Shown here: positions 8,911 through 57,369 of the stretch, in pieces | How the letters are laid out: every line of letters begins with the position of its first letter | How positions within the stretch are numbered: position 1 is the first letter of the stretch | Origin: Octopus vulgaris | Taxonomy: Eukaryota | DNA: 64,000 bases | NCBI GenBank assembly: GCA_951406725.2 | Contig: OX597824.1 | Span: forward strand, 60,760,001 to 60,824,000 | Reading direction: 5' to 3' | The notes under the pieces: model-generated | Told to the model about the DNA's origin: nothing | The model's input: the letters and a program-made list of their open reading frames with translations, nothing else | Database searches by the model: none | Program-made: the position numbers and the translations under genes

Positions 8911-9218
8911 TGGCCCAGGCCTCTTCAGCTCTTTTCTGACTATTGATGATAGACATCATGTTGTTTTGGAGTTAATGTTTTTTAATCTCTAGCGACAAGA
9001 TGGCAGTCAGGTTGGTGTGTTGCTGTTGACAGTATTTCAGCTTGTTGATTTTTTTGTTAATTCTTTTAATTTTTCCTGATGAGAGTTTTTCTATTTCTAG
9101 GGATTTTGCACATATGTTCGTAATGGTGTCTACAAATGACTGCCAGGACTTTTTGATGTTTTTGGTGTTAGTGGCTGTGTATGTGTGCGTGAAGGACCAA
9201 TATATATATATATATATC

Positions 9219-10388
9219 ACATCACCGACTCCTTCACCTGCACCTCCAGCAATATCATCTATTGCATCTCCTGTTCTCACTGCCATTCCCTGTACATCGG
9301 ACAAATGGGATGCCGCTTGGCTGACCAGTTCGCAGAACACCCCGAGACATCTGCCTCGGCAATGACACCCTGGTCTTATACCATTTCCGCTCCATCGGTC
9401 ACTCCTTGTAACACCTGTCTGTGATCGGATTGTTCTTGCACAGAGGCCATCCGGACTCCTGTTTGCACTGTGAACAGGGATTAATCTTCTCTCTTCGCTG
9501 TTTTATGCCATTTGGGCTCAACTCTCCTCCCCCTCTTCATCTAACCTCCTCCCTGACTCCTACTTCTCTTCACTCCTACATCTCTTCGCCCCTACTCTCT
9601 TACTCGCTTTCTCTCTTATCTCTCACTTTCCTTGTCTCCTCTCTCTCCCCCATCCCTCCTACTTCCTCCCACCCAACTCTCCTCTCTTGCCCCGACTCCT
9701 ACTTCTCTTCACTCCTACTTCTCTTCACCCCTACTCTCTTTCCCTCTTCTCTCTTCTCTCCTACTCTTTTTCTCACCCATCTTTCCTCTTACTCTCTTTC
9801 TCTATTTCTCTCTTCTCTCTTACTCTCTTTCCTCTTTCTCTCTTCCCTCTTTCTCTCTTCTTTCTTATTCTCTTTCTCTCTTCTCCCTTATTCTTTCACC
9901 CTCTCTTTCTCTCTCCTCTCTTACTCCCTTTCTTCTCTCCTCACATACCTCTACCCCCACCCTCTGCCTACCCACAAACCTCAACCCCAACTCTACCCCA
10001 ACCCTCAGGCGAACCCACCCCCCACCCGTGGTTTCCCTAATCTCGCCTCCCCACACCTCCCAACATCACACCACACCACACTACACCATACAACATTACA
10101 CATCACATCACAACACACCACCCACACACCCATCTCCACATTTTCACACCTACACATACATACACGCACACATCCAGACCACCAGCACTCTTTCACATGC
10201 ACATACATACTCTCTTATACACAAACGCACCTTCATGTTGGGGGTCATCTTTACTTTGTTATCTCCCCTACTATCCTTCTCGTGTGTGACCCTTCTGTCC
10301 GAGTCAGTTGCCATGATAGATCGTTAGCCACTACACACATTTTTTTCTCTCCTTGTTTTTTTTTGTGTCTCTTTCTTTAGAAGAGCGT
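9219..10388 (+). mobile_element. Penelope-like element 3' part: GIY-YIG endonuclease remnant, long CT-rich tract and truncated ribozyme-like end
   Basis: HITDSFTCTSSNIIYCISCSHCHSLYIGQMGCRLADQFAEH. A related minus-strand fragment lies at about 31850-32160. Confidence 0.75.
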
Positions 10389-12318: not shown

Positions 12319-12455
12319 CTGACCATAATGTCCTGTCTTTTTATGGTCATTTGTTCCATTATAAGTGAAGCTCTTATTTTCAGCATTCCATGATCCTATT
12401 ACGTGTGTCCAATTTACATGTCTAAGGCCCAAATTCTGTCCAACGTCAAATTTTC
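12319..12455 (-). CDS. CAP/CRISP gene exon: (G)KFDVGQNLGLRHVNWTHVIGSWNAENKSFTYNGTNDHKKTGHYGQ
   Basis: Acceptor tttgtattgtAG and donor GTatgt. 137 nt, phase 1-0. Contains CAP4 GQNL, WxxE and CAP1 GHYxQ. Confidence 0.93.
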
Positions 12456-13251
12456 CTACAATACAAAAATCATTTTAATATTTAATTTTCCATACAGGTA
12501 TTATTTAGGAGAATTTAACTGCTTCCGTCCAGTCATTGGACTTCCCTTTCAAAAAAGTAAAACGAGTGGTTATTTGTGAGTGAGAATGGTTTGATAGAAT
12601 ATATATCAAGCTTTCACTAATTGTTCTAGGTGTCTATGTCGTATAGGAATTCCATGGCTAATACCCCCATATCATACAATTAGTCACAAATGTTTTCAGC
12701 AGTTACTACAGTGAAATCTTCTCTTGTATGTGGAGACACCATAATAATAAATTTTGCGTAGGCACCACAATTAACCTTGTATTAACCCTGTGAATCAGCG
12801 TATTTCTATGCATAGGTACTCGATTCCCACCTTTGGCCTTAACCATTCCACTTTACAAGCTGATGATATCCATAATTTGGAGGATTCTGAGATTACTTAT
12901 AAAGTGTATTGGTCAATGCTAGGACGTGCAATACCATACTGGGGAGGTAAGCATCCCTGTGTACAAAGGAGGGTTTCAAGACTGTATCATGTAATAGAAA
13001 ACACCTTAATACCGCACACACTTACAGAATAAAATGTTCCAAAATTACTGGACAGAAATATCCTGAACTATACTAGTGCACTACCTGTCATACAGTTAAT
13101 ATGGGAGTAATAGCCATGGAAATCTTATGTTATGGGTACGAAAGGCCATAGCCTTGATCTCCATCTTCCGTTTGTTTTCTGCTTCTACTCTGTGCCCCCA
13201 GTTACACTGTTCCACAGATGCTACTGATAATTTGCAAAATGGGGTTATATA

Positions 13252-14134
13252 CATAGTATGATCAATAAGTATCCGGTCTGTTGCCATAGTAACAAAGCTA
13301 AAGTATGCAGTGTAAAGCTGCTTCACACAGATTGAACTTGAACTCTGATGTGCATGCGCACTAAGTTTTAGCATTCTAGATCACTTTCGCTGTTTACAGC
13401 GGTGCTCGGAAGAAACGTCTGTAGCGTGTGATCGTCGCGTTGACCATGACAGAGAAAGTTAAGCAGAGAATCTGCATCAAATTTTGCCAAAAGCTTGGCA
13501 ATACCTGCTCAGAGACCTACGCAAAGTTTTCAAAACGTTTTCATCGTTCTCGACACAATCAAAGAGATCTTGTGCAACTGAAACCCGAGTGTCTTCTTGG
13601 TCAGCTGAAAGCAGTTTTGGCACAAACTTGGCAGACACTCGTCTCATATCCAAATCTTTAGTGATAATGGACTGAATCGTAACTAATTTGCGCATTCTCT
13701 GATAACTCACAGATGCTGATTCAACGATTTCCCCTCATAGCTGCACGCACATCTGCGATGTTTTTCTGAGTTCTACTGGTTGCTAATCTCCCAGAACGTT
13801 CGTCAATATCAACATTTATTCAGCCATTGTGGAAACGTCTAAACCACTCGTATACATGTTTGCAGCTCATACACCCGTCTCCATACACTTTCTGCAACTT
13901 TTCGTAGGCCTCTGAGCAGGTGTTGCCGTGACAAATTTCTCTGTCATGGTTAATGCGACGAACACACGCTACATACCTTCCTTCCAAGCACTGTTGTAAA
14001 CACCAGAAGTGAGCTAGAACGTTAAAACTTAGTATGCATGAACATCAAAGTTCAGGGTCAATCTTTGCAAAGCAGCTTCACTCTGCATGTTTTAGCCTCG
14101 TTACAATGTCCAGATACTTATTGATCAGACTTCG
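13252..14134. mobile_element. Non-autonomous mariner derivative with two inverted 5' ends
   Basis: TA flanks and TIR core TGATCAATAAGTA. Minus-strand transposase remnant (TKDLDMRRVSAKFVPKLLSADQ). Plus-strand N-terminus (MTEKVKQRICIKFCQKLG) lies within long inverted arms. Confidence 0.8.
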
Positions 14135-14942
14135 TATTGAACGTGTAACACTATTCTTTATATTTATCAGTAAACACTGAGTAGGTGATTTAATAAGATT
14201 ATATAATTTTCAATAAACAGTTACGTAAACCTGTCGCTTAATTTAGGGAAATGTGCGTATGCTCCATAAAGCATAGAATACAAAATATGTTTTGTATATT
14301 TTGTTAATACTATCATGTAGCTCATATTCCACAATCTAGTGTATTCTGTGACTTGATCCCTCCTGTCTTACCACATTAAATATAAAAGCTGAGTAGAACA
14401 TACCACTGAGCCCGAATTTTTGGATATATAGCGTACTTTACACTGCACACACACACATACATACATACCTATAAATATACGATAGTGGTACAACAATGCA
14501 TCGATATTTACTGGAAATAGCAGTCGATAATATACGACACGAGAGTAAAGCTTCACTGTATATATATATATAAAATGTACGTTATCAAGCGCGCCAAAGT
14601 GAAAACATTTGAAAAATACACCCAAATATAATTTGTAGAACTCTATACATTCTCTATTTCGGTTGAGCGTTCAGTATCTAGTTCTGGAAATTGTGTTTTG
14701 TAAGCGACAGACTGATGATCATGCAGATATTTACGTATTTACATAAGTAAATATTAACAAGTGAAACCATGGTACGTAGGTAATCGTTTTTTATTTCGTA
14801 TATTTTCATTTGTCTTGCTCATTTTAACATATTGGTGTTTTGCTGAGATTTTTCTTGAGAACACACTCTTCGTGGTAATGGCGATTTGACGTCTATGTTT
14901 AGCATATTAGGTGTCCAATTTATTGGTCATTCCTCTTAATTT

Positions 14943-14981
<39 letters not shown>

Positions 14982-15166
14982 TACAAAATTAGAAAATGGA
15001 GAAACATACTTAAATCAATAAAACATCAACTATCAGATGATACCCAATCAATACTTTATTACACCATTACATATCCGTAAAGGCATTATACAAAATATAC
15101 AGTAAAAGTAAATAGACAAAGAGATATAAGTATAAAATTTCAAATATAATATGTAATTAAATCAAA

Positions 15167-15276
15167 TCTGACAGCTGTTTCGGCAGTGAGGGCAGTCATA
15201 CCTCATTTAACCTATAAGCCATAAAGGCAGGTATAAATGAGGCATTAACAAGGATGCCCCACGGCCTCTTCAGAGA
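15167..15276 (-). ncRNA. Mirror-image hammerhead ribozyme in the left palindrome arm (sense in the CAP pre-mRNA)
   Basis: Reverse complement of 17049-17158. Confidence 0.8.
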
Positions 15277-15615
15277 ATTAAATTTGTTATAATTGTGAAA
15301 AAGATTATTTAACCATATACATATAAATATAAAAATATAAAAATGTAAAATATAAAAACTTATACATAAACTTCATAACGCTACACTTATATAATATAAT
15401 ACTCATTGGTACAATAATGCAAGGTAAACAGAACAAAATAAAACAAAATATATATCAGTGTATATATTAATATTAATAAGCACCGTTATTATACATATTT
15501 GGCTAATAGTTTTTTAAAAAAACTAACACATAGGGAGATGAAAAATAATAATTAAAACCATGGTTCAGTTCATAAAATTATAAAGCTATAAAAGTCAATA
15601 AAAATTACTATTAAT

Positions 15616-15661
<46 letters not shown>

Positions 15662-16661
15662 GATACAGTTATGTTTGCACCAAGTCCATCCTTTCAAGAT
15701 CGAAATAACTATGAGTTTAGAAATACTGACCACTAGGTAATGATAATTTAGATTAATTCGATTGGCTAGTGGTTTGAAATTTAAATCACAAAAGAAATTA
15801 TACGGTTGGTTAGTCAAGGAACGCCAATATTCACACGCGCATCCACAGATCAATCGCACATACACACATAATTATATGTATACACATACACTTATACACA
15901 TACATAACCACAAGCAACAACTAGCACATAGATAAACAAAAAGGGAAGCAACTATGCTGCCATTTAGTCCTTCAAAATTATAAATATGTCTCAAATAAAA
16001 AAAATGATCCACTCATGCATTTCATAAAATATTTAATTTAAAGATAGAAATATATTTTTAAATATCAGTATGTTACGAAGTCAGATACTATTTCATTGGG
16101 TAACTTAAAATTTATAACACCGGATTGTTGCATAGTAAACATACGGTTGTTAGATTTACCGTAAGTTTGTTACTTACGGTAAATCTAACAACCGTATGTT
16201 TACTATGCAACAATCCGGTGTTATAAATTTTAAGTTACCCAATGAAATAGTATCTGACTTCGTAACATACTGATATTTAAAAATATATTTCTATCTTTAA
16301 ATTAAATATTTTATGAAATGCATGAGTGGATCATTTTTTTATTTGAGGCATAGTTATAATTTTGAAGGACTAAATGGCAGCATAGTTGCTTCCCTTTTGT
16401 TTATCTATGTGCTAGTTGTTTGTATATGGTTATGTATGTGTATACATATAATTATGTGTGTATGTGCGATTGATCTGTGGATGCGCGTGTGAATATTGGC
16501 GTTCCTTGACTAACCAACCGTATAATTTCTTTTGTGATTTAAATTTCAAACCACTAGCCAATCGAATTAATCTAAATTATCATTACCTAGTGGTCAGTAT
16601 TTCTAAACTCATAGTTATTTCGATCTTGAAAGGATGGACTTGGTGCAAACATAACTGTATC

Positions 16662-16710
<49 letters not shown>

Positions 16711-17048
16711 ATTAATAGTAATTTTTATTGACTTTTATAGCTTTATAATTTTATGAACTGAACCATGGTTTTAATTATTATTTTTCATCTCCCTATGTGT
16801 TAGTTTTTTTAAAAACTATTAGCCAAATATGTATAATAACGGTGCTTATTAATATTAATATATACACTGATATATATTTTGTTTTATTTTGTTCTGTTTA
16901 CCTTGCATTATTGTACCAATGAGTATTATATTATATAAGTGTAGCGTTATGAAGTTTATGTATAAGTTTTTATATTTTACATTTTTATATTTTTATATTT
17001 ATATGTATATGGTTAAATAATCTTTTTCACAATTATAACAAATTTAAT

Positions 17049-17158
17049 TCTCTGAAGAGGCCGTGGGGCATCCTTGTTAATGCCTCATTTATACCTGCCT
17101 TTATGGCTTATAGGTTAAATGAGGTATGACTGCCCTCACTGCCGAAACAGCTGTCAGA
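17049..17158 (+). ncRNA. Type I hammerhead ribozyme with long stem II (PLE-type); predicted cleavage after GUC at 17155
   Basis: TCT-CTGAAGA-GGCcGTGGGGCA...TGCCCTCACtGCC-GAAA-CAGCTG-TC-AGA. Intact core, G10.1-C11.1 pair, palindromic stem III ACAGCTGT. Confidence 0.8.
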
Positions 17159-17511
17159 TTTGATTTAATTACATATTATATTTGAAATTTTATACTTATA
17201 TCTCTTTGTCTATTTACTTTTACTGTATATTTTGTATAATGCCTTTACGGATATGTAATGGTGTAATAAAGTATTGATTGGGTATCATCTGATAGTTGAT
17301 GTTTTATTGATCTAAGTATGTTTCTCCATTTTCTAATTTTGTAGTATTAATTTACGGTAATATTATTACCTTTACCCATATAATACAATAGATGAACTGA
17401 TTGTTTGGCAATTTTTAACATCTATGTATTAGTCTTGTTGGGTACCTATCTAGCAGTATATTGGATATATATTATCCCATGGTGGGTTGAATTTTCAACC
17501 CCTATCTCATT

Positions 17512-17563
<52 letters not shown>

Positions 17564-17564
<1 letters not shown>

Positions 17565-17936
17565 TGGCAAAAATGTTTGCGGGCGACGAACATAAAAAAT
17601 TTCATCTTATCTGTAAGAACAACAGTAAATAAATGTACAACTCAGATATGGACAATCTAGGACCTAGGTTTCAAACTTTTGATAATGTAAATTTGATTAG
17701 TTCTCTTCGGCTAGATTCACATAGACAAAATTTCAAATGTTGCTACCTCAATGCCGATATTACTCGTCTGAACGCCTAGCCGAAGAGATCTAATCAAATT
17801 TACATTATCAAACGTAATTTGGAAAGTTCGAAACCTAGGTCCTAGATTATCCACATCTGGGTTGTACATTTATTTAATATTGTTCTTACAGGTAAGATGA
17901 AATTTTTATATTGCCACTCGCAAACATTTTTGCCAG
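17564..17936. mobile_element. MITE/fold-back element with about 150-bp imperfect TIRs, inserted in (TA)n
   Basis: CTGGCAAAAATGTTTGCG...CGCAAACATTTTTGCCAG. The arms pair inward to ...CTTCGGCTAG / CTAGCCGAAG.... TA on both flanks. Confidence 0.75.
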
Positions 17937-17969
<33 letters not shown>

Positions 17970-18612
17970 CAGTCAAAAAGTCTTGGCTATTCCTTCTATT
18001 TCTAAATTCGGTGTGTGGTGAGGCAAATCGTTGCTGAACCCTAATTATTTAGTATTACTTAAACTTACCATGAATTGGTCTTTTACATGCCGAATTCTAC
18101 TTGGTGAAATTACTGACTACTTCTTAATTAATTAATTTCACCCTTTGTCATATATATATATATATATAATGTACAGTGAAGCTTTACTATAGCGTCGTAT
18201 ATTATCGACTGCGATTTCCAGTAAATATTGGTGCATTGTTGTACCACTATCTTTGATTTATACTTTAACCTGTTGGTGCTTTGTTTTCAATACTGCCATA
18301 CTGCACTATTTGATAATTTCTTTCTTTTCATACACACATACATACATACATACATACATACACACACACATACATATATATATTATAGGTATATATGAGT
18401 GTATGTGTGCATGCGTGTATGTAAGTGTATATATCTGTGTATAAGTGTATATGTATGTGTGCGTGTGTGTGTAGATAGATAGATAGATTAACGATACATG
18501 TGGAAACAAATGAGTTTCCTCAAGCCATTTTCACAATCTAAATTTCTACATTCTTGTTATTTTCACAATACATTAAAGAACATTAACATACAAAAGTTAA
18601 TATGTTTCTTAC

Positions 18613-18703
18613 CAGGTATTATTCTCCGGAATGCTGGTTCATGCTCAAAATAGCAATTGTCGGCCCATTTCTGAGCTACATATTCTAAGTCTTCATCCCA
18701 AGA
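18613..18703 (-). CDS. CAP/CRISP gene exon: SWDEDLEYVAQKWADNCYFEHEPAFRRIIPG
   Basis: Acceptor atttcAG and donor GTaaga. 91 nt, phase 0-1. Matches the CAP pattern WDxxLxxxAQxWAxxCxFxH. Confidence 0.93.
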
Positions 18704-19249
18704 CTGAAATTATGGACAGTAAAGATAGCATTTTAATGATGACATTTGCTAGAAATCTAGAATAATTTTGCCAAATCCACCATTTTAGTTTTACTGCTTT
18801 CACCGATGAAATTATAAGTGAAATTATATTGTGAATTCTCTTCCTTTGAGTTCGTCTTATTTTTTTAGTGTGCAGGTACAATAGATAACATACTGTATTA
18901 CACATAAAATAACACATTTAACACATGCGCAATTATAAATACAATAACAATACATAAATGTGACTGCTGCAATTTCAGGATCAAGTTCAGTAATTTTAAA
19001 TGGAAAGGGAGCGTTAAGCACATAGATCCTAATACTCAAAGATCCTAATACTTGAGTGACACATACTTTGATTGACCTTGAAGGGGAGAAAAACAAGGTC
19101 AACTTTTATTGGATATAATTACAGAATTTAACTAAATATTGCAAAGCATTTTGTGCAACACTTAAATGATTTTGTCAGTTGTTTGATTGGCACCAGCTTT
19201 TGATAGTAAAATGAAAATTTCAAAAATAAATACATACAGTTTTTGAGTT

Positions 19250-19805
19250 TTTGGTGCAGTTGCAAACATATAGTTTTTGGTGCAGTTGCAACAACAGCAA
19301 CAGCATCAACAACGATGACTACAACAGCAACAATATCAACTACAAGAGCAACAACAACAAAACCAACAGTTGCTGGAATTAATGTTGAAGAAGTCAGAAT
19401 ATACTCCAGGTTCATACTCGCCAGACAGCGTAGAAGATTCAGTTGAAGAATTCAGTTATAATTCAGAAGAAGGGATTACCTTCTCTGCCTATTTTCGAAG
19501 ATACGAAGAAATTTTCAAAGAAGAATGTAAGAATTAGTCTGACAAGAAAAATGTACGACTACTTTTAAGACAGTTATCCCCTGCTGAACACGAAAAATAT
19601 AGTAATTATACCCTACTGAGATTTGTTTCGATGAAACAATTAATTTTTGTTGAAAATTTTATGTGAAACAAGTCCCCTGTTCAGTACTCGCTGGCAATGT
19701 TTAAATTTGGTCAAAAAAATTATGAAGATTTCGTCACCTATGCTGGGGTTGTTAGTAGAGAGTGTGAAAAATTTAAATTTAATCAATTAACACCGGACAT
19801 GCTCG
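19250..19805 (+). mobile_element. Gypsy gag fragment, related to the element at 53167-56218
   Basis: EEGITFSAYFRRYEEIFKEEC...LFSTRWQCLNLVK...RECEKFKFNQLTPDML. Confidence 0.7.
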
Positions 19806-19984
19806 CAACCATTGATGTTAAATCCGGGACTGGTTTGTAAATTTACGCCGTTTTCCTGGATTTGGTTTTATAAAAAAAAAATCCCAAAACAATATAAGGG
19901 TTAATTATTTTATTCTAGCCATACTTGTGATTTATTCTACGTGAAAGCAGTGCTCGTCACCTTTTGCTAATTTATACGTGTTGC

Positions 19985-22900
19985 ATTCCTTGGCCGGCAT
20001 GAAGCACGCTGCCAATGTTCAGTAGTGATGTAAGAGTTTGGTTCGCACAAATGGAAGTGCATTTCGTCGCAAACAACATTACGTCGGAGTAGCAATAGTT
20101 ATACATCTTGTCAAGCGCCATTCAGGCTCCCCTAGCAGCCAATTTGAAGGATTTCATCACAGACCCACATCACAATACTTCCTATTATTCCATAAAGAAC
20201 AAGGTTCTCAGTCAGACGTGGAGAAACGTTTTCGCACCTTAGTAAATGAGAAGCGCTTGGGCGATAGAATGCTGACCCAACTTCTTTGCCGGATGTGGGA
20301 GCTAACGGAGGGCGCATCTGCGGACATTATTATTAAACAGCTTTACCATCATACGTGCAGGCCATCCTTGCTCCCATGATGGAGGTCAGTATTGTGGACC
20401 AATTGACTTCCACAACTGATAAGATATTGGATTATGCTGGTCAAAGTGATGTTACTATACCGGCCCGGCTACCTGCAGCAGTTTCTTCTTCTTCGTCTTT
20501 AGTAGCATCTGTCTCATCGGAGCATGATTCGACACAAGCGGCAACCCTACAGGCCATTCCGCACGGAATTCTTCTCCACGCCTGAGGTCATTTAATCGTT
20601 CATCTCCCAGATGACGTTCTTTCTCTCCTGATTTTTAATTGACACACCGCTAGTACCATAGACGTTTTGATGTTGCTGCCCAGAAATGTACTGTGTTCTT
20701 ACTCGAAGCAGGGAAATTCCACAGTGGGACACTGAGCAGAGAGCTGATCCCAGTTCGCGCCTGCATAATCGAACATTGTTCGTTGAGGACTTATTGTTGC
20801 ACAAACATTTTCTTATTTATTCTGGTGCTGCCTGCAGTATTTGACCAGTGAAATTCATCAAATATAGCCCTTCTATCTCTCCGATTACCCTGCAAGCTGT
20901 GAGCCACTCACCAATACCAACACATGGCCAAATCTCTTTTTCATTGGATTTAGCTCTGCGAAGAGATTTCAAATGGATTTTCATCAAGGTCGACTTGCCT
21001 TACCCAATCCTCGGTGCGGATTTTCTCCACCACCACTCTATCATGGTTGATGTGCGTAAACAACAGTTATTGGACAACAATTCAGACTTTGCTATCTTTG
21101 GCTGAATTTCAAGCACTTCTTCGGTCAGCCCAGTATTCTTTATCTCAGCGACTGGAAACCAATACCAATCGATGTTAGACTTTCCCCGGAGCTCACTAAC
21201 CTGAAATTCCAAGTGAATAATCCTGATCACTCAACGGAACATTTTATCTCAAAGAATGGTGCTCTAGTGTTTTCGTCCTTGTCGTTTGCCTCCGGGAAGG
21301 ATATAGGCAGCGAAAGCTGAATTCAGTCACATGCTACAGCTCGGAATTATCTGCCCTTCCACTAGTCAGTGAGCCAAGCCGCTTCACATGGCCCCAAGAA
21401 CTCTGACGATTTACGTCCTACGAGGGATTTTAAGCGTCTCAATGCTATCACTATTCCTGATAGGTATCAATTCCTCACCTTCAAGATTTCGCTTCATCAC
21501 TGCATAGCTATACTAAGTTTTCCAAGCTCGATCTCATTAGGGTTACCACCATTAATCCCTGTCTACCCTGAAGACATTCCGAAGGTGGCAGTAACAACTC
21601 CATTTAGCTCTTTCGAATCCTTGACTAGGCCATTTGACCTTTGAAATATTGCCAGCACTTTTCAGTGGTTCATAGATGAAATCATTCGTGGATTGGATTT
21701 CGTTTATGCCTATATCGATGATCTTCTGATTGCCAATTCTTCAACGGAAAAAGTGCTCTTCATTTAAGATTACTTTTCTAGCGACTTACCCAATATAAAG
21801 AGCAGATTAACCTGGCTAAATGTGTTTTGGTACATCGTCCCTTGTGTTTCTTGGTCACATCACAGACAAAGACGGCATTCGATCTCTACCAGGCAAAGTG
21901 CGAGATATTGAGGACATTCTTCCACCGACGTCCTTTCGTCAGTTATGCCACTTTCATGGCTTACTTAATTTCTGTTGTTGTTTTATTCCTCACTGTGCTG
22001 GACCCCTGTATCGACTCACCGAACTTCTCAAAAACCGACGGAAGAAGAATGAGACCATTTCGCTGACTCCTACTCAAACTTTTGAAAGCAGCTCTCATTG
22101 CACATCCTGTCTCCGATGCAAAGCTTTCGCTTGTGGTTGACACTGCAATTAGTGCTGCTTTACAGCAATTTTATCAGCAACACTTGCAACTTCTTGCTTT
22201 TTCTATCAGCAGCTGAAACCTGCTGAAACACACTACAGCGCGTCCAGTCCCAAACTGTTGTCGACATACCTGTCAGTGAAGCATTTTTAACACATCCTTG
22301 AAGGAAGGAGCTTCACTATATATACTGACCATAAACCTCTCACTTTTGCCTTGCGGTCTAAGCCGGAAAAGTACTCACCAAGAGAAACTCGACACCTGGA
22401 CTTTATATCACAGTTCACCAGTGATATTTAACACATCTTCGGTATTCAAAACACTACTGCAGATGCACTGTCCCGTCTACCAATCAATTCAGTAGCATCC
22501 ACTGTGGATATTGATCTGAATGTTTTTTCCTCAGAGCAGTCTCCTCTGGACTCACCCAAGATATCTTCTGAGTGTACGATGTGAAAATTCCAGTACTTGT
22601 CTGTACCAACTTCCGACAAGATGATACTATGTGACGTATTGACAGGTTCACATCGTTCCTTCATTCCAAATACCCATAAACGAGCTGTGTTTGAAGGCCT
22701 GCATAATTTGCCATATCCTGGAGCCTCAGCCTCAATGAAGCTCATTACGGCTAGATTCTTCTGGCCAAACATGAGACATGACATCACTGATTATTCTCGA
22801 TCTTGCTTCCACTGTCAAGGGTCGAAGGTGCATAAAGACATTCATGCACCCTCAGTACCTTCAGCACACTAGAAGCATGCTTCCGCCACATTCACATTGA

Positions 22901-24304: not shown

Positions 24305-25278
24305 ATGATCAATCGATACTTAACAATAAAAGTAACTACTATCCAACAAAACTTTTGTGATTTGGTTTCCAATTATCCCTACAATTTACTCCCACCTCGA
24401 AAATTTAAAACAAATACAAGTCAAGAAGAATGGGAGATCATTATTAAGCTCAAGGAGGATGACGACATAATTATAAAAGAAACCGATAAAGGGAGTGTTG
24501 TAGTAATCATGGACTCAGAAAAATTCATAAACACTACCCTAATCTTCCTTCATGACAATACCTACTAAGAAAAAATCAACAACTGCAATCAATCCAAGAT
24601 AATGACTGAACTTTTTACCCTTATCCACCAGTTCCAACAAGGTTTAACGGAAAAGGAGAGAGATTGCTTGACTAGATTTGACTGCAAAACCAGCAGCTTT
24701 TATGGACTTCTCAAAATCCACAAAAGTGAGGCCGTAAATGAAGCCTGTAACAAATCAACTTCTGTAATCATAAATATCTCTCATTCAAGAGGTCTCAAAA
24801 TGAGACCAATTGTGGCCGGTCCCTTGAGTGAGACACACAGACTTTATTGACCTCCCCACTAAACCTTTTCTCTAACATATACCGATGATCTGGGATGATC
24901 TGAACTTTTCAAACCATATCCCAAACAAAACCAGCAAGGACTCCTTTCTGGTTTCATTCGATGTAATAAATCTCTTCACCTCGATTCCTCACGAATACGG
25001 AATAATAGCCATACAATACTGGCTGGAAAAATTCCCAAATGACATTCCTGACCGAATCAGAAGAGAATTCATCATTGAAGGAATAAAATTCGTCGTACAG
25101 AAAAACATTTTCAACTTCAACGAGAACACTTATAGACAAAAATCGAGCACAATGATGGGAACGAGGGTAGACCCTACTTTTGTCAACCTTGTCATGGCAT
25201 GATTGGAAGTCCAAATATACAAATATGCTGGACTGAAATTTGGAGACAACTTCCAAAAATACTTACTCACCAGCTGGA
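24305..25278 (+). mobile_element. Penelope-like element reverse transcriptase fragment
   Basis: IIIKETDKGSVVVIMD, FYGLLKIHK, MRPIV, LVSFDVINLFTSIP and MGTRVDPTFVNLVM are PLE RT motifs. Interrupted by stops. Confidence 0.88.
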
Positions 25279-53166: not shown

Positions 53167-56100
53167 TGTTGTAACATAATTGTTACAATAAATAAGATAA
53201 CCAGACAACAGAAACAACAATGTAGCAATCTAACAAATCTCTTTACGAACCAACAATCAATATTCCTTGTGAACTAACCAACTGACACCTTCCAACTTCA
53301 CTGCAAACTAACACGAACTTCACTCAACTCTGAACTCTGAACTTATGAACTCACTCAGATCATTATTATTCATAGTTTATTTGGAGCAGTCTATTTCTCA
53401 CAAGGAGGCATCATAACTCTCATCACAATATCTCCCCTTTTGAGATTTCGACAACTGTGAGAAAGTGGAATTTAAAAATTTTTTCTTATTTTCTTTCCAG
53501 CACCTCTCACACTTTTTTTTAACTGCTGCATTTTAATTGTTGCCCGACTTTTAAGGTAGTATTGTCCGTTGCACACAGCATTTTGCTTTTCGTTGTATTA
53601 AGCACTCTTGTTTTTTTTTTATTTAATACCTTTTTCGTTTAAGTATTACTTCCAGATATTCAATCTGTTTTCGTTTTCTGAAGCTAGTTCTATGGGGTTC
53701 AATATTTCTTGGTGCTGGCACTTCAAACATATCATAGAAGACTTCCATTGGCATTATCCTTTGTTCTTCTGTATGTCTCATCTTTCACTGGTTAAAGTTT
53801 CCCTTATGTTCTGAACATTGTCCTTTAATTAAATACATCATGTTACCTAACCTTTTGATTACACAGCCATCCACCCAATCTTCTTTACCATTTTTATAAT
53901 TTTTAAAATGAACTTTATCTCCTACTTCAAAATATTTTGTAATATTTCTTGTATTTCCTTCAAATGTATTTTTTGTCTTTGCCTTATATGTATTTTTCCT
54001 TGCAATAATTTATCGAAGATCAGTTTTATTTTATACATGAACATTAACTCTGCTGGTGACTTTCCTGAATTAGTATTTGGATTTGGTGTTATTCTTTATA
54101 CTCACAAAAATTTCATTGGGAGCTGCCCATTTCACGTAGTCTACTTTTTCAATGATTCCGTTTTTTTTCAAATCTGTCCTGCCCATTATCCACTTGCTTT
54201 ATTGCTGCAAAAGGCACTTTCCTATTAGGCTGGGACACAGGTGTACCGTTATCAACTAATTCAAAACGCGCTTCAGTTTCTGTACATAAACCTAGTTTGT
54301 CCGAGAGTACTTGCGGAAACATTTAAAAATTTTCTCTTCAGACAAATTACTTTTAGAGGGACACCCATTAACGTTTTTACAATAGAGATTTATGGGGAGG
54401 CCTCATAAATTGAATAATTCTGACCAATCAGTACTCAACATATCAGTTGCATTTTTAACGATGAAGACTTTCGCCTTGCATGTTTTCTCTCGAAATGTGA
54501 CGTTAGTCTACATTTTGCCTATGAAATATAATTTGTCACTCGTCACACTACGAACAAATTTCACGGTTTTCCCCTCATATAGGTTTCCTTATTTTCTTCG
54601 TATGTCCATATTTGTTATTGAAATATCACTTCCAGTATCCAACAGAAGTTTAATATATATTTCATTTATTTTTCTGTGTATGAATTTTGGTATTTGGGAG
54701 TTGATTTTTGCTTCTGCTGGAGCACTCTGGGATTTTTAACATTTTACCTTCATAATTTTGTTTTGCAGTGTGAACTCTTGTGATCAATTCTTTTGTAACT
54801 GTAACATTTTTGATTTTAAATAGACAGTCTTTTCTGAAATGTATGCCTCCCCCTCCACATCCATAACATGGTTTAGGACGTGGTGCTCTTTTTAGTTGTA
54901 CTTTTCCGGTTAGTATATCTGTACTTTTGAGGAGTCCTTTTCTTGAATTTTTTCCACATCGTGTTTCAGGTTTACCATCCTTTGGCATTCTTTTGCCACA
55001 GACTGTAAAATTAGATCTTGGTTCGCTTGTTGCAATTTAGAAAAAATTCTTGCCTGAATTTCTGTATCTTCTCTTGCTGTAAGGCCTTGTACGAAAATAA
55101 GACACTTGAACATCTCAGGTGTAAGTTCTTTGAGTTTAAAACTTTCACACATCCTGTTGACTGTCCTGGCATATGCGATAAAATCAACATTTTCTTTTTA
55201 CGTTATATTCCAACATTCTCTTCGAGTGAAGTTTTTTCACCGAATACGTTAGACAGCAATTCTATTGTTTCTTTAAAATAAATTTCATTGGGTTATTTGG
55301 ACAATATGAAATTTCAGTAATTTTCACGTTCTAACGAAGCTAATTTTCACAATAACAATCTCATTTTTTGTTCGTCCGATCATGATTTACAATCTTTTAA
55401 AAAAATCTCCTCGTACCTTCTGTTGTACGATGCGAAAGTTATACCCTCCTCTGGGTTATAACTGAATTCATTAATAGAGTTCGAAACGCCGTCTGGCGAA
55501 AACGAACTTATCTCATTTTTGGACTTCTTTGAATATAGATCCAGTAATTGTTGTTGTTGTAGTTGTTGCTATAATAATTGCTTCTGCAACTCCTCTTGCT
55601 GCTCTTGTTGATGCTTTTGTAACTGACCTTTGGAAGCTAATAGGGCTTCCATTGTTTAACAAGTTGCAAGGCGGCAAGCTTGCAGAAACGTTAGCATGCC
55701 AGGTGAAATGCTTTGTAGTATTTCGTCTGTCTTTACATTCTGAGTTCAAAGTCTGCTGAGGTCGACTTTGCCTTTCATCCTTTCGAGGTAGATAAATTAA
55801 GTACCAGTTACATAGTGGGGTCGATCTAATCGACTGGCTCCCTCCTCAAAAATTTTGGGCCTTGTGCTTAGAGTGGAAAAGATTATTTAATAAGTTGTAT
55901 CACGAACAAATTGTTAAATAACCTATGTGAGCTTCGAAACCCTCCTCGCCAGATGTTGTAACGTAATTGTTACACACAATAAATAAGATAACCAGACAAC
56001 TGTAACAACAATGTAACGAACTAACAATTCTCTCTATGAACCCTCAATCAATATTCCTTGTGGACTAACCAACTGACACCTTCTGACTTCACTGTGAACT

Positions 56101-56533: not shown

Positions 56534-56573
56534 TATATAATTGTTAAACATGACATCAAACATTAAAGTAAGG

Positions 56574-57155
56574 CAAACATCTCAAGTCATATACAATACC
56601 ATTATAAGAAGAAATTCAAAATCTTACAGCTGTTACCGAGATATCCCTGAGTATGGGATATTCCATCATCAGAGATAAATAAGGGAAACAATATGGAAAA
56701 TGATAATGTATACATCCATAAGATGACAACGTAGAGGAAGGGAGTAAATGAATGAGGGGATGGAAAGAGAGAAGAAAGAAGAAGCACAAAAGTTCATAAT
56801 TCAACTTTCCGACGTTATAGAAACCAGACCATGAGTCCTTAGGTGCAATCCTGCATAGATCCATGAGCGTAAGTCTTTATGCAGGATTGCACCTAAGGAC
56901 TCATGCTCTGGTTTCTATAACTTCAGAAAGTTAAATAATGAACTTTTATGTTTCTTTTTTCTTCTCTCTTTCCATCTCCTCATTCTTCTACTCCCTTCCT
57001 CTATGTTGTCATCTAATGGTTATATACATTCTCATTTTCCATATTGTTTCCCTTATTTATCTCTGATGAGGGAATATCCCATATTCGGGGATATCCCAGC
57101 TGTAAGATTTTGAATTTCTTCCGATAATGATATTGTATATGACTTGAGATGTTTG
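56574..57155. repeat. Diverged palindrome (about 280-bp arms, 20-nt spacer) with a decayed hammerhead in each arm
   Basis: Arms 56574-56857 and 56878-57155. CTGATGA-..ATATCCC/GGGATAT..-CAGCTG-TA-AGA is present in both. GAAA is deleted in the right arm and mutated to GTAA in the left. Confidence 0.85.
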
Positions 57156-57160
57156 ACATT

Positions 57161-57369
57161 CATTATTAGCACTTTCATTTCTTTCTTGATCTTGTCAAAT
57201 AAAATTTTGTGAAAGTACAGACAGCTTGTTCATTTATATAAGACAGATGATTTTTGGGGTTTCCCCCACACCAAAATAATCTGTTTTATATAAATGAACA
57301 AGCTGTTTGTACATTCACAAAATTTTATTTGATAAGTTTGAGAAAGAAACGAAAGTGCTAACGATAATG
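57161..57369. repeat. Imperfect palindrome, about 100-bp arms with a short spacer
   Basis: TCAAATAAAATTTTGTGAA...CAGCTTGTTCATTTATATAA is mirrored by TTATATAAATGAACAAGCTG...TTCACAAAATTTTATTTGA. Confidence 0.8.

Follow-up and report, generated by a model that had tools for sequence, protein, structure and literature searches.

Insertions of Penelope-like elements (PLEs) are described with an inverted, 5'-truncated copy at their 5' end, a tail of 30-40 bp that is often present at one end only, and (TA)n targets (PMC8557442, including its Figure 2 legend). The preference for (TA)n targets is recorded for Neptune, Hydra, and Naiad among PLEs. For instance, Penelope-13_HM has a 966-nt inverted copy, carries a hammerhead on each strand, and lies in (TA)n (PMC8557442). 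Head-to-head PLE structures with palindromic junctions have been read as self-priming on an antisense template (PMC3846280), and pairs of hammerheads on opposite strands are reported 100-700 bp apart (PMC4209133). PLE hammerheads with a 2-bp stem III are reported to be inactive or weak as monomers, and a single minimal motif gave no cleavage (PMC4209133). In work with a purified PLE protein, both strands were cut and then extended, and initiation took place at two sites, one at each limit of the tail; the PLE hammerhead needs protein for its activity and is dispensable for insertion (PMC11167929). Retrozymes, in turn, are defined by tandem monomers and circular RNA (PMC7229834; bioRxiv 10.64898/2026.07.22.740005).

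Here we describe an insert in the window, by which we mean the whole analyzed stretch of 64,000 nucleotides from Octopus vulgaris. Our preferred reading, to which we assign a probability of roughly 0.8, is a single insertion by the enzyme of a Penelope-like element, which placed two 5'-truncated copies of a very common hammerhead repeat head-to-head in a TA microsatellite within an intron of a CAP gene.

Architecture of the insert and its host intron

The insert as a whole (14981-17517) is asymmetric and not a pure palindrome. Its inverted arms, 14981-16166 (1186 nt) and 16172-17344 (1173 nt), are 97.9% identical over 1192 alignment columns and are separated by the 5-nt spacer TTGTT (16167-16171), which agrees with a preceding sequence-only reading that had given arms of about 1.18 kb and a 5-nt spacer. 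The same reading had placed the palindrome inside (TA)n. This holds on the left side, where the left arm alone directly adjoins (TA)17 (14947-14980), the left half of the microsatellite target; on the right side, the arm continues into a one-sided tail of about 170 nt of further family sequence (17345-17517, plus strand), and only then follows (TA)23 (17518-17563), the right half of the target. The left copy has its sense on the minus strand and spans 14981-16172 when the spacer letters are included, with a 1-nt overlap at 16172, whereas the right arm (16172-17344) is a 5'-truncated, non-coding family copy with its sense on the plus strand and a body of 25% GC. Any target-site duplication would be hidden by the (TA)n. 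On the right, the insert is adjoined by a MITE-like fold-back of about 370 bp with perfect terminal inverted repeats in (TA)n (17564-17936). The palindrome and both of its hammerhead motifs are real in the assembly.

The host intron (12456-18612, minus strand, 6.2 kb) lies between two phase-compatible CAP-like exons. The upstream exon (18613-18703, minus strand) matches the Pfam CAP family at E 0.0034, which is below the curated cut-off, and GLIPR1 at E 0.00047; the downstream exon (12319-12455, minus strand) has weak CRISP matches, the best at E 0.026. Because the two exons join in phase, have AG/GT ends, and are both weakly CAP-like, the insert is intronic, in line with the earlier placement within a CAP gene. 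A decayed mariner-like element with inverted repeats of about 81% identity (13244-14142) is located in the same intron.

There is no credible open reading frame in the insert, which contains only short stop-to-stop frames, and a tblastn search with six homologues of a PLE reverse transcriptase (RT) fragment gave no match better than E 0.058; the copy is thus non-coding, as had been noticed from its letters. No RT or GIY-YIG sequence was found in the 1.35 kb of family sequence. Elsewhere in the window there are a broken PLE reverse-transcriptase remnant (24389-25277), which is 75-81% identical to Octopus proteins, with 81-82% identity to proteins of Octopus sinensis and O. bimaculoides in three of six hits, and a separate endonuclease-end remnant (9155-9376). 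At the DNA level, the palindrome arm resembles none of the window's other PLE remnants. Remnants of LTR retrotransposons (gag/pol, integrase zinc domain) occupy 19210-22872 and 54662-55570.

The twin hammerhead motifs and their masking

Each arm contains an identical 104-nt type I hammerhead motif, at 17052-17155 on the plus strand and at 15273-15170 on the minus strand. In the right copy, the core C3-U4-G5-A6-A7-G8-A9 (17052-17058, mirrored at 15273-15267) is followed by stem II (17059-17143) with the G10.1-C11.1 pair, by GAAA (17144-17147), by the palindromic stem III (17147-17154), and by C17 (17155), with the predicted cut at 17155/17156; the conserved core is complete in both arms. Stem I is open, and stem III has only 2 bp, capped so that ACAGCUGU is self-complementary. 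The 85-nt stem II folds at -40.7 kcal/mol (z -6.6), and none of 200 shuffles is as stable; the constrained hammerhead fold, with all three stems, likewise has -40.7 kcal/mol. A strict scan found the motif twice in the window, whereas 0.005 hits are expected per shuffled window and one of 200 shuffles had a hit. The intact type I core, the unusually long stem II of about 85 nt, and the palindromic stem III that the sequence-only reading had ascribed to each arm are all borne out by these results.

Two further hits of a loose scan, for which 0.64 hits are expected per window, were rejected as chance (51069 plus, z 0.02; 35761 minus, z -1.13), as neither has fold support. An Rfam search returned no match at the gathering score and no hammerhead family among the 21 matches to E 10, as expected because stem II is 85 nt long; the matches below gathering (miRNA and similar) were rejected as hairpin-driven. 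Pattern scans gave no match in metagenome contigs or prokaryote genomes. Our literature search found no paper on a hammerhead with a long stem II in a retrotransposon, and the papers on octopus hammerheads, judged by title, include none that describes the palindrome's family, which Repbase or Dfam, both outside the search, may catalogue. A second, older head-to-head palindrome belonging to another family was found at 56564-57165; it is about 88-91% complementary, has a 20-nt spacer, and contains a pair of decayed type I hammerheads, whose cores lie at 57064 (plus) and 56672 (minus), with a stem II of about 36 nt and with the same letters in stem I and in the ACAGCTGT stem III as the main insert. 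Its left arm is about 30 nt longer, up to (TA)/(CA)n, and this extension is possibly a tail.

Among the variants listed for the family contigs, none falls into the hammerhead core, two change G-C to G-U in stem II, which preserves the pairing, and two lie in unpaired places, with no two-sided covariation in stem II. The motif holds four of the 39 variable places (P 0.025, or P 0.66 in the worst case for eight further rows outside the listed ones). In public run X8, which is guessed to be RNA and may be DNA, a 138-nt contig spans the predicted cut and is identical to 17053-17190. In this family-wide and possibly DNA-derived run, 18 of 41 variable places are A>G or T>C, compared with 7 of 33 in X3 (P 0.05). 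The 47 aligned X8 contigs are family-wide and come from another individual, and they are taken as evidence on neither cleavage nor editing.

Whichever strand is transcribed, the RNA contains the antisense copy upstream of the sense hammerhead. When the 2369-nt minus-strand RNA is folded, all 104 nucleotides of the sense hammerhead are paired with the antisense copy, and the duplex has -257 kcal/mol vs -48 kcal/mol for the hammerhead motif. The proposal that the antisense copy is transcribed first and that the resulting hairpin masks the ribozyme thus agrees with both the geometry and the computed fold. The hammerhead fold costs 7.4 kcal/mol relative to the minimum-energy fold of the monomer, and the stem III palindrome can pair between molecules at a computed -11.1 kcal/mol. 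Since each transcript has a single sense motif, these two values imply that the lone motif would probably be weak even if it were unmasked. The hammerhead is probably a dimer-type passenger that would have no activity in the host pre-mRNA. The 1.17-kb near-perfect intronic hairpin would be well suited as an editing substrate, provided that the gene is expressed; RNA editing is heavy in coleoids.

Masking also bears on the proposal of a dedicated non-autonomous fold-back family, in which the palindrome is the mobile unit and is kept in introns because its ribozymes are masked. Masking is indeed thermodynamically certain once the hairpin forms, as the above energies indicate. However, it holds for any head-to-head insertion in either orientation, and therefore a single locus shows no selection for it. 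Moreover, little activity is to be expected from a single hammerhead of this type in any case (PMC4209133), and Xenopus retrozyme copies, 42-44% of which overlap introns, are depleted there after size normalisation (bioRxiv 10.64898/2026.07.22.740005). For a transcript with one sense hammerhead of a weak monomer type, self-inhibition may be unnecessary as a cause of intronic tolerance.

Family ends, junction, and origin of the head-to-head arrangement

The family was characterized from contigs of public runs. Twenty of the 24 listed runs, which carry three organism labels and come from 11 studies, hold part of 16730-17500; the best run has a share of 0.66, that is, only 66% of the words, and shared alleles may thus be strain or subfamily differences. 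In these runs the family reaches very high depth, and its unique sequence extends over at least 1.35 kb. Among the contigs on 16985-17516, the tail and the ribozyme region have equally deep coverage (the depth is high in X1, X2, and X3), and hence the tail is family sequence. At least 13 X2 contigs depart behind 17347, which corresponds to the left arm's end, and at least one X3 contig departs behind 17513, the right copy's end, among the 24 of 184 loose ends listed. All of them enter (TA)n, and therefore the insert combines one short and one long natural family end, the long one being represented by few of the listed contigs.

The deep 3' module (17025-17517) comprises about 490 nt. The median summed depth of 17039-17344 exceeds that of 16184-16651 by 11.8x in X1, 7.9x in X2, and 8.2x in X3, the three runs compared, a ratio that is compatible with 3'-anchored truncation, with differing likeness cut-offs (85 and 88), added depth from diverged relatives, and depth not being copy number. 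The last 65 nt or so of the tail (17452-17516) are common to diverged relatives, as seen from a depth peak and from long loose ends before 17452-17454, and may represent a common enzyme-recognition end; the hairpin at the end of the tail is unremarkable (z -1.1). The last letter of a splice-acceptor-like motif (17329-17344) coincides with the short family end, and stem II contains a donor-like motif (17121-17129). PLEs are known to have introns in their 5'-UTRs. The corresponding spliced joint, from the donor-like motif to 17344, was absent among the joints listed for contigs on 16985-17516.

At the centre, among the contigs on 16130-16655, one X2 contig runs from the left arm through the spacer to 16172 and continues with 21 letters unlike the window, while on the right arm two contigs (X2 and X5) have 12 unaligned letters in front of an alignment that begins at 16172. 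We therefore read the spacer as 5' letters of the left copy itself and the centre as a probable point of 5' truncation, on the evidence of one contig that runs through and two that are indirect; a contig with a family-wide junction may still exist. None of the 32 listed contig pieces, of 1884, bridges the centre, and no joint does so among those listed, although contigs cannot prove absence.

The central and outer ends argue against the palindrome as a mobile unit. The fold-back family discussed above would account for truncation points that lie only 5-6 nt apart in the two arms and for the lack of an ORF in the part of the family seen. Against it, the family sequence continues past the centre, where it supplies the spacer, and the two outer ends are different natural ends; thus we regard a fold-back family as very unlikely, and this part of the sequence-only reading is not retained. 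A Foldback or MITE-type DNA transposon was rejected for similar reasons, as the ends of the insert differ by the tail and family sequence runs through its centre. The locus was also called retrozyme-like, and this fails for want of head-to-tail monomers; a non-LTR retrozyme was rejected because no direct repeat of the arm is present at the locus and no returning joint was seen among those listed, although the edges of the aligned stretch could conceal one.

The arms differ by nine events. Six of these lie in a divergent patch (15891-15997, mirrored at about 16333-16444) and comprise a 14-nt duplication, a short local replacement, two substitutions, and two 1-nt indels. The remaining three are a substitution at 15013/17312, a slip in a homopolymer near 15510, and a single TAA unit. 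The 14-nt indel, the TAA unit, and the substitutions had been noticed before; the differences are not scattered, however, as six of the nine fall within 107 bp (P 0.002). The left arm's 14-nt duplication was found in X3 (depth 1545) and X5 (depth 690), and X2 shows it as a loose end. The arm's extra T behind 16394 occurs as a common allele of the family in each of the four runs, and a 1-nt gap at 16421 in X3 and X5 fits the arm's local replacement. Three of the six clustered differences therefore recur as family alleles, and the other three are unattested in the runs. The patch thus carries real family alleles, introduced by conversion from another copy or left as a polishing imprint, and not of random read errors. 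Outside the patch, a private C at 17312 is found in the right arm only, whereas both arms have 16214T, 16333A, and 17249G, at each of which all depth in four of four runs has another letter. Because these three letters are common to both arms and absent from the runs, the arms derive from one source, unless the letters are strain alleles. The pattern suggests one template plus a converted or polished patch.

These differences are also what an assembly or library fold-back artefact would have to explain. The palindrome is known from the assembly alone; the left arm is one base longer in all three homopolymer differences; and the 107-bp patch is about as long as one short read, as polishing with reads of other copies could leave. 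On the other hand, a fold-back would mirror the tail and the flank, and here the insert is followed instead by unique sequence and by the next CAP exon in its proper order, the CAP exons remaining colinear across the insert. In addition, the left end is a natural family end, and the extra T and the 14-nt duplication recur in the runs as given above. We consider an artefact highly improbable. Polishing is a reasonable, if less than even, candidate for the patch by itself, but not for the palindrome.

Another possibility is that a solo copy was inserted first and that its mirror arm was added later by DNA repair, through fold-back at a break and subsequent template switching. Such an origin would fit the 5-nt loop with its 1-nt overlap, and also the fact that the arms are nearly identical and have rare alleles in common. 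Repair, however, would place the left end exactly on a natural family end and next to (TA)n only by chance, and the spacer belongs to the tail-less copy, whereas a fold-back that started from the tailed copy would require the other one. This scenario has little chance of being right.

We return to insertion by a PLE enzyme, for which the hammerhead near the 3' end, the inverted 5'-truncated copy, the one-sided tail, and the (TA)n target fit an EN+ Penelope-like element. The colinear CAP exons and the second head-to-head palindrome, at 56564-57165, also speak for this reading. In the proposed course of events, the PLE enzyme would cut both strands of (TA)n; one DNA end would prime reverse transcription at the short start site, giving the left copy, and the other would prime at the long start site, 170 nt further on, giving the right copy with its tail. 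The centre would form at the stop of the left cDNA, which would snap back over a 5-nt loop and then anneal to the second, tail-bearing cDNA; alternatively, both cDNAs may have run off the same RNA 5' end. A patch of about 110 bp in one arm was probably replaced from another family copy, by conversion or assembly polishing, and the hairpin would be a by-product of insertion. Both variants of the centre account for the near-equal truncation of the two copies, for their common alleles, and for their unequal ends, and hence these features cannot separate the two. A pure one-cDNA snap-back was rejected, as from the left it gives no tail and from the right it puts the spacer in the opposite orientation. 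Thus, the junction anatomy of this young copy, with its spacer from the tail-less arm, two natural ends, and shared rare alleles, excludes one-cDNA fold-back. Twin priming is known from L1; judged by title, none of the papers found on Penelope, twin priming, and inversion deals with PLE inversions.

As neither an ORF nor an autonomous partner was found, membership of the family in PLEs is unproven. Its upstream sequence was seen for 21 letters only, and the present copy has no RT or GIY-YIG ORF; two possibilities are about evenly likely for the family, namely that it is an autonomous element's long non-coding end and that it is a non-autonomous rider. A much broader proposition combines an undescribed octopod family, non-autonomous, very abundant, and 1.35 kb or more in length, with a working hammerhead of 85-nt stem II and a 170-nt tail, with insertions that record PLE inversion by snap-back of the first cDNA and its capture by a second one from the other DNA end, and with preferential retention of intronic copies as self-masking palindromes and kilobase-long ADAR/Dicer substrates; taken as a whole, we find this proposition improbable.

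Comparison with known systems

The class is known debris of Penelope-like retrotransposition. The sequence-only reading had linked the locus to PLE pseudo-LTR hammerheads and inverted termini, and this link is supported by the matching published layout, which is head-to-head with a tail at one end (PMC8557442, PMC3846280). The octopus insert shares with inverted insertions of EN+ PLEs the head-to-head copies, the outward-facing hammerheads, the tail at one end, and the (TA)n target; it differs in that no ORF was reached, in that both copies are cut at almost the same point, and in its tail of about 170 nt vs 30-40 nt (PMC8557442, PMC3846280). The tail length counts against our preferred reading, as does the lack of any known link between the family and an RT or GIY-YIG sequence. 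The junction bears on the question, left open in PMC8557442, of how inverted structures are formed by PLEs.

Particular PLE groups were considered and set aside. Naiad is defined by having no canonical hammerhead (PMC8557442), whereas the octopus insert has a canonical core; the hammerhead listed for Hydra-1_Obim has different stems, with a 22-nt helix II (PMC8557442 supplement). When nine short family motifs were compared with the consensus sequences in the PMC8557442 supplement, eight had no match and one had an unrelated chance match.

Poseidon of Anolis carolinensis, studied in vitro, resembles the inferred insertion in that both strands are cut and extended at AT-rich DNA and in that two internal starts bound the tail; Poseidon, however, has an ORF that begins within stem II, unlike the octopus insert, and far less distance between its two starts (PMC11167929). 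Metazoan non-LTR retrozymes are similarly non-coding and low in GC, and have a type I hammerhead, a short palindromic stem III, and a proposed dependence on PLEs (PMC7229834; bioRxiv 10.64898/2026.07.22.740005). They are built as head-to-tail monomers of about 300 nt with circular RNA, whereas the octopus family has a single motif in each copy, unique sequence of 1.35 kb or more, and no tandem arrangement.

At the level of the motif, the octopus copies share with metazoan PLE hammerheads the intact core, the G10.1-C11.1 pair, the palindromic 15.2-16.2 positions and loop 3, the occurrence in opposite-strand pairs, and a helix II larger than usual; that helix has 6-8 bp in the published motifs, in contrast to the interrupted 85-nt hairpin of the octopus insert (PMC4209133). 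Stem II has at most 53 nt in 34 rows of File S2 of PMC8557442, a file whose searches favour short stems. The 85-nt stem II and the 170-nt tail thus both exceed the published examples with which they were compared.
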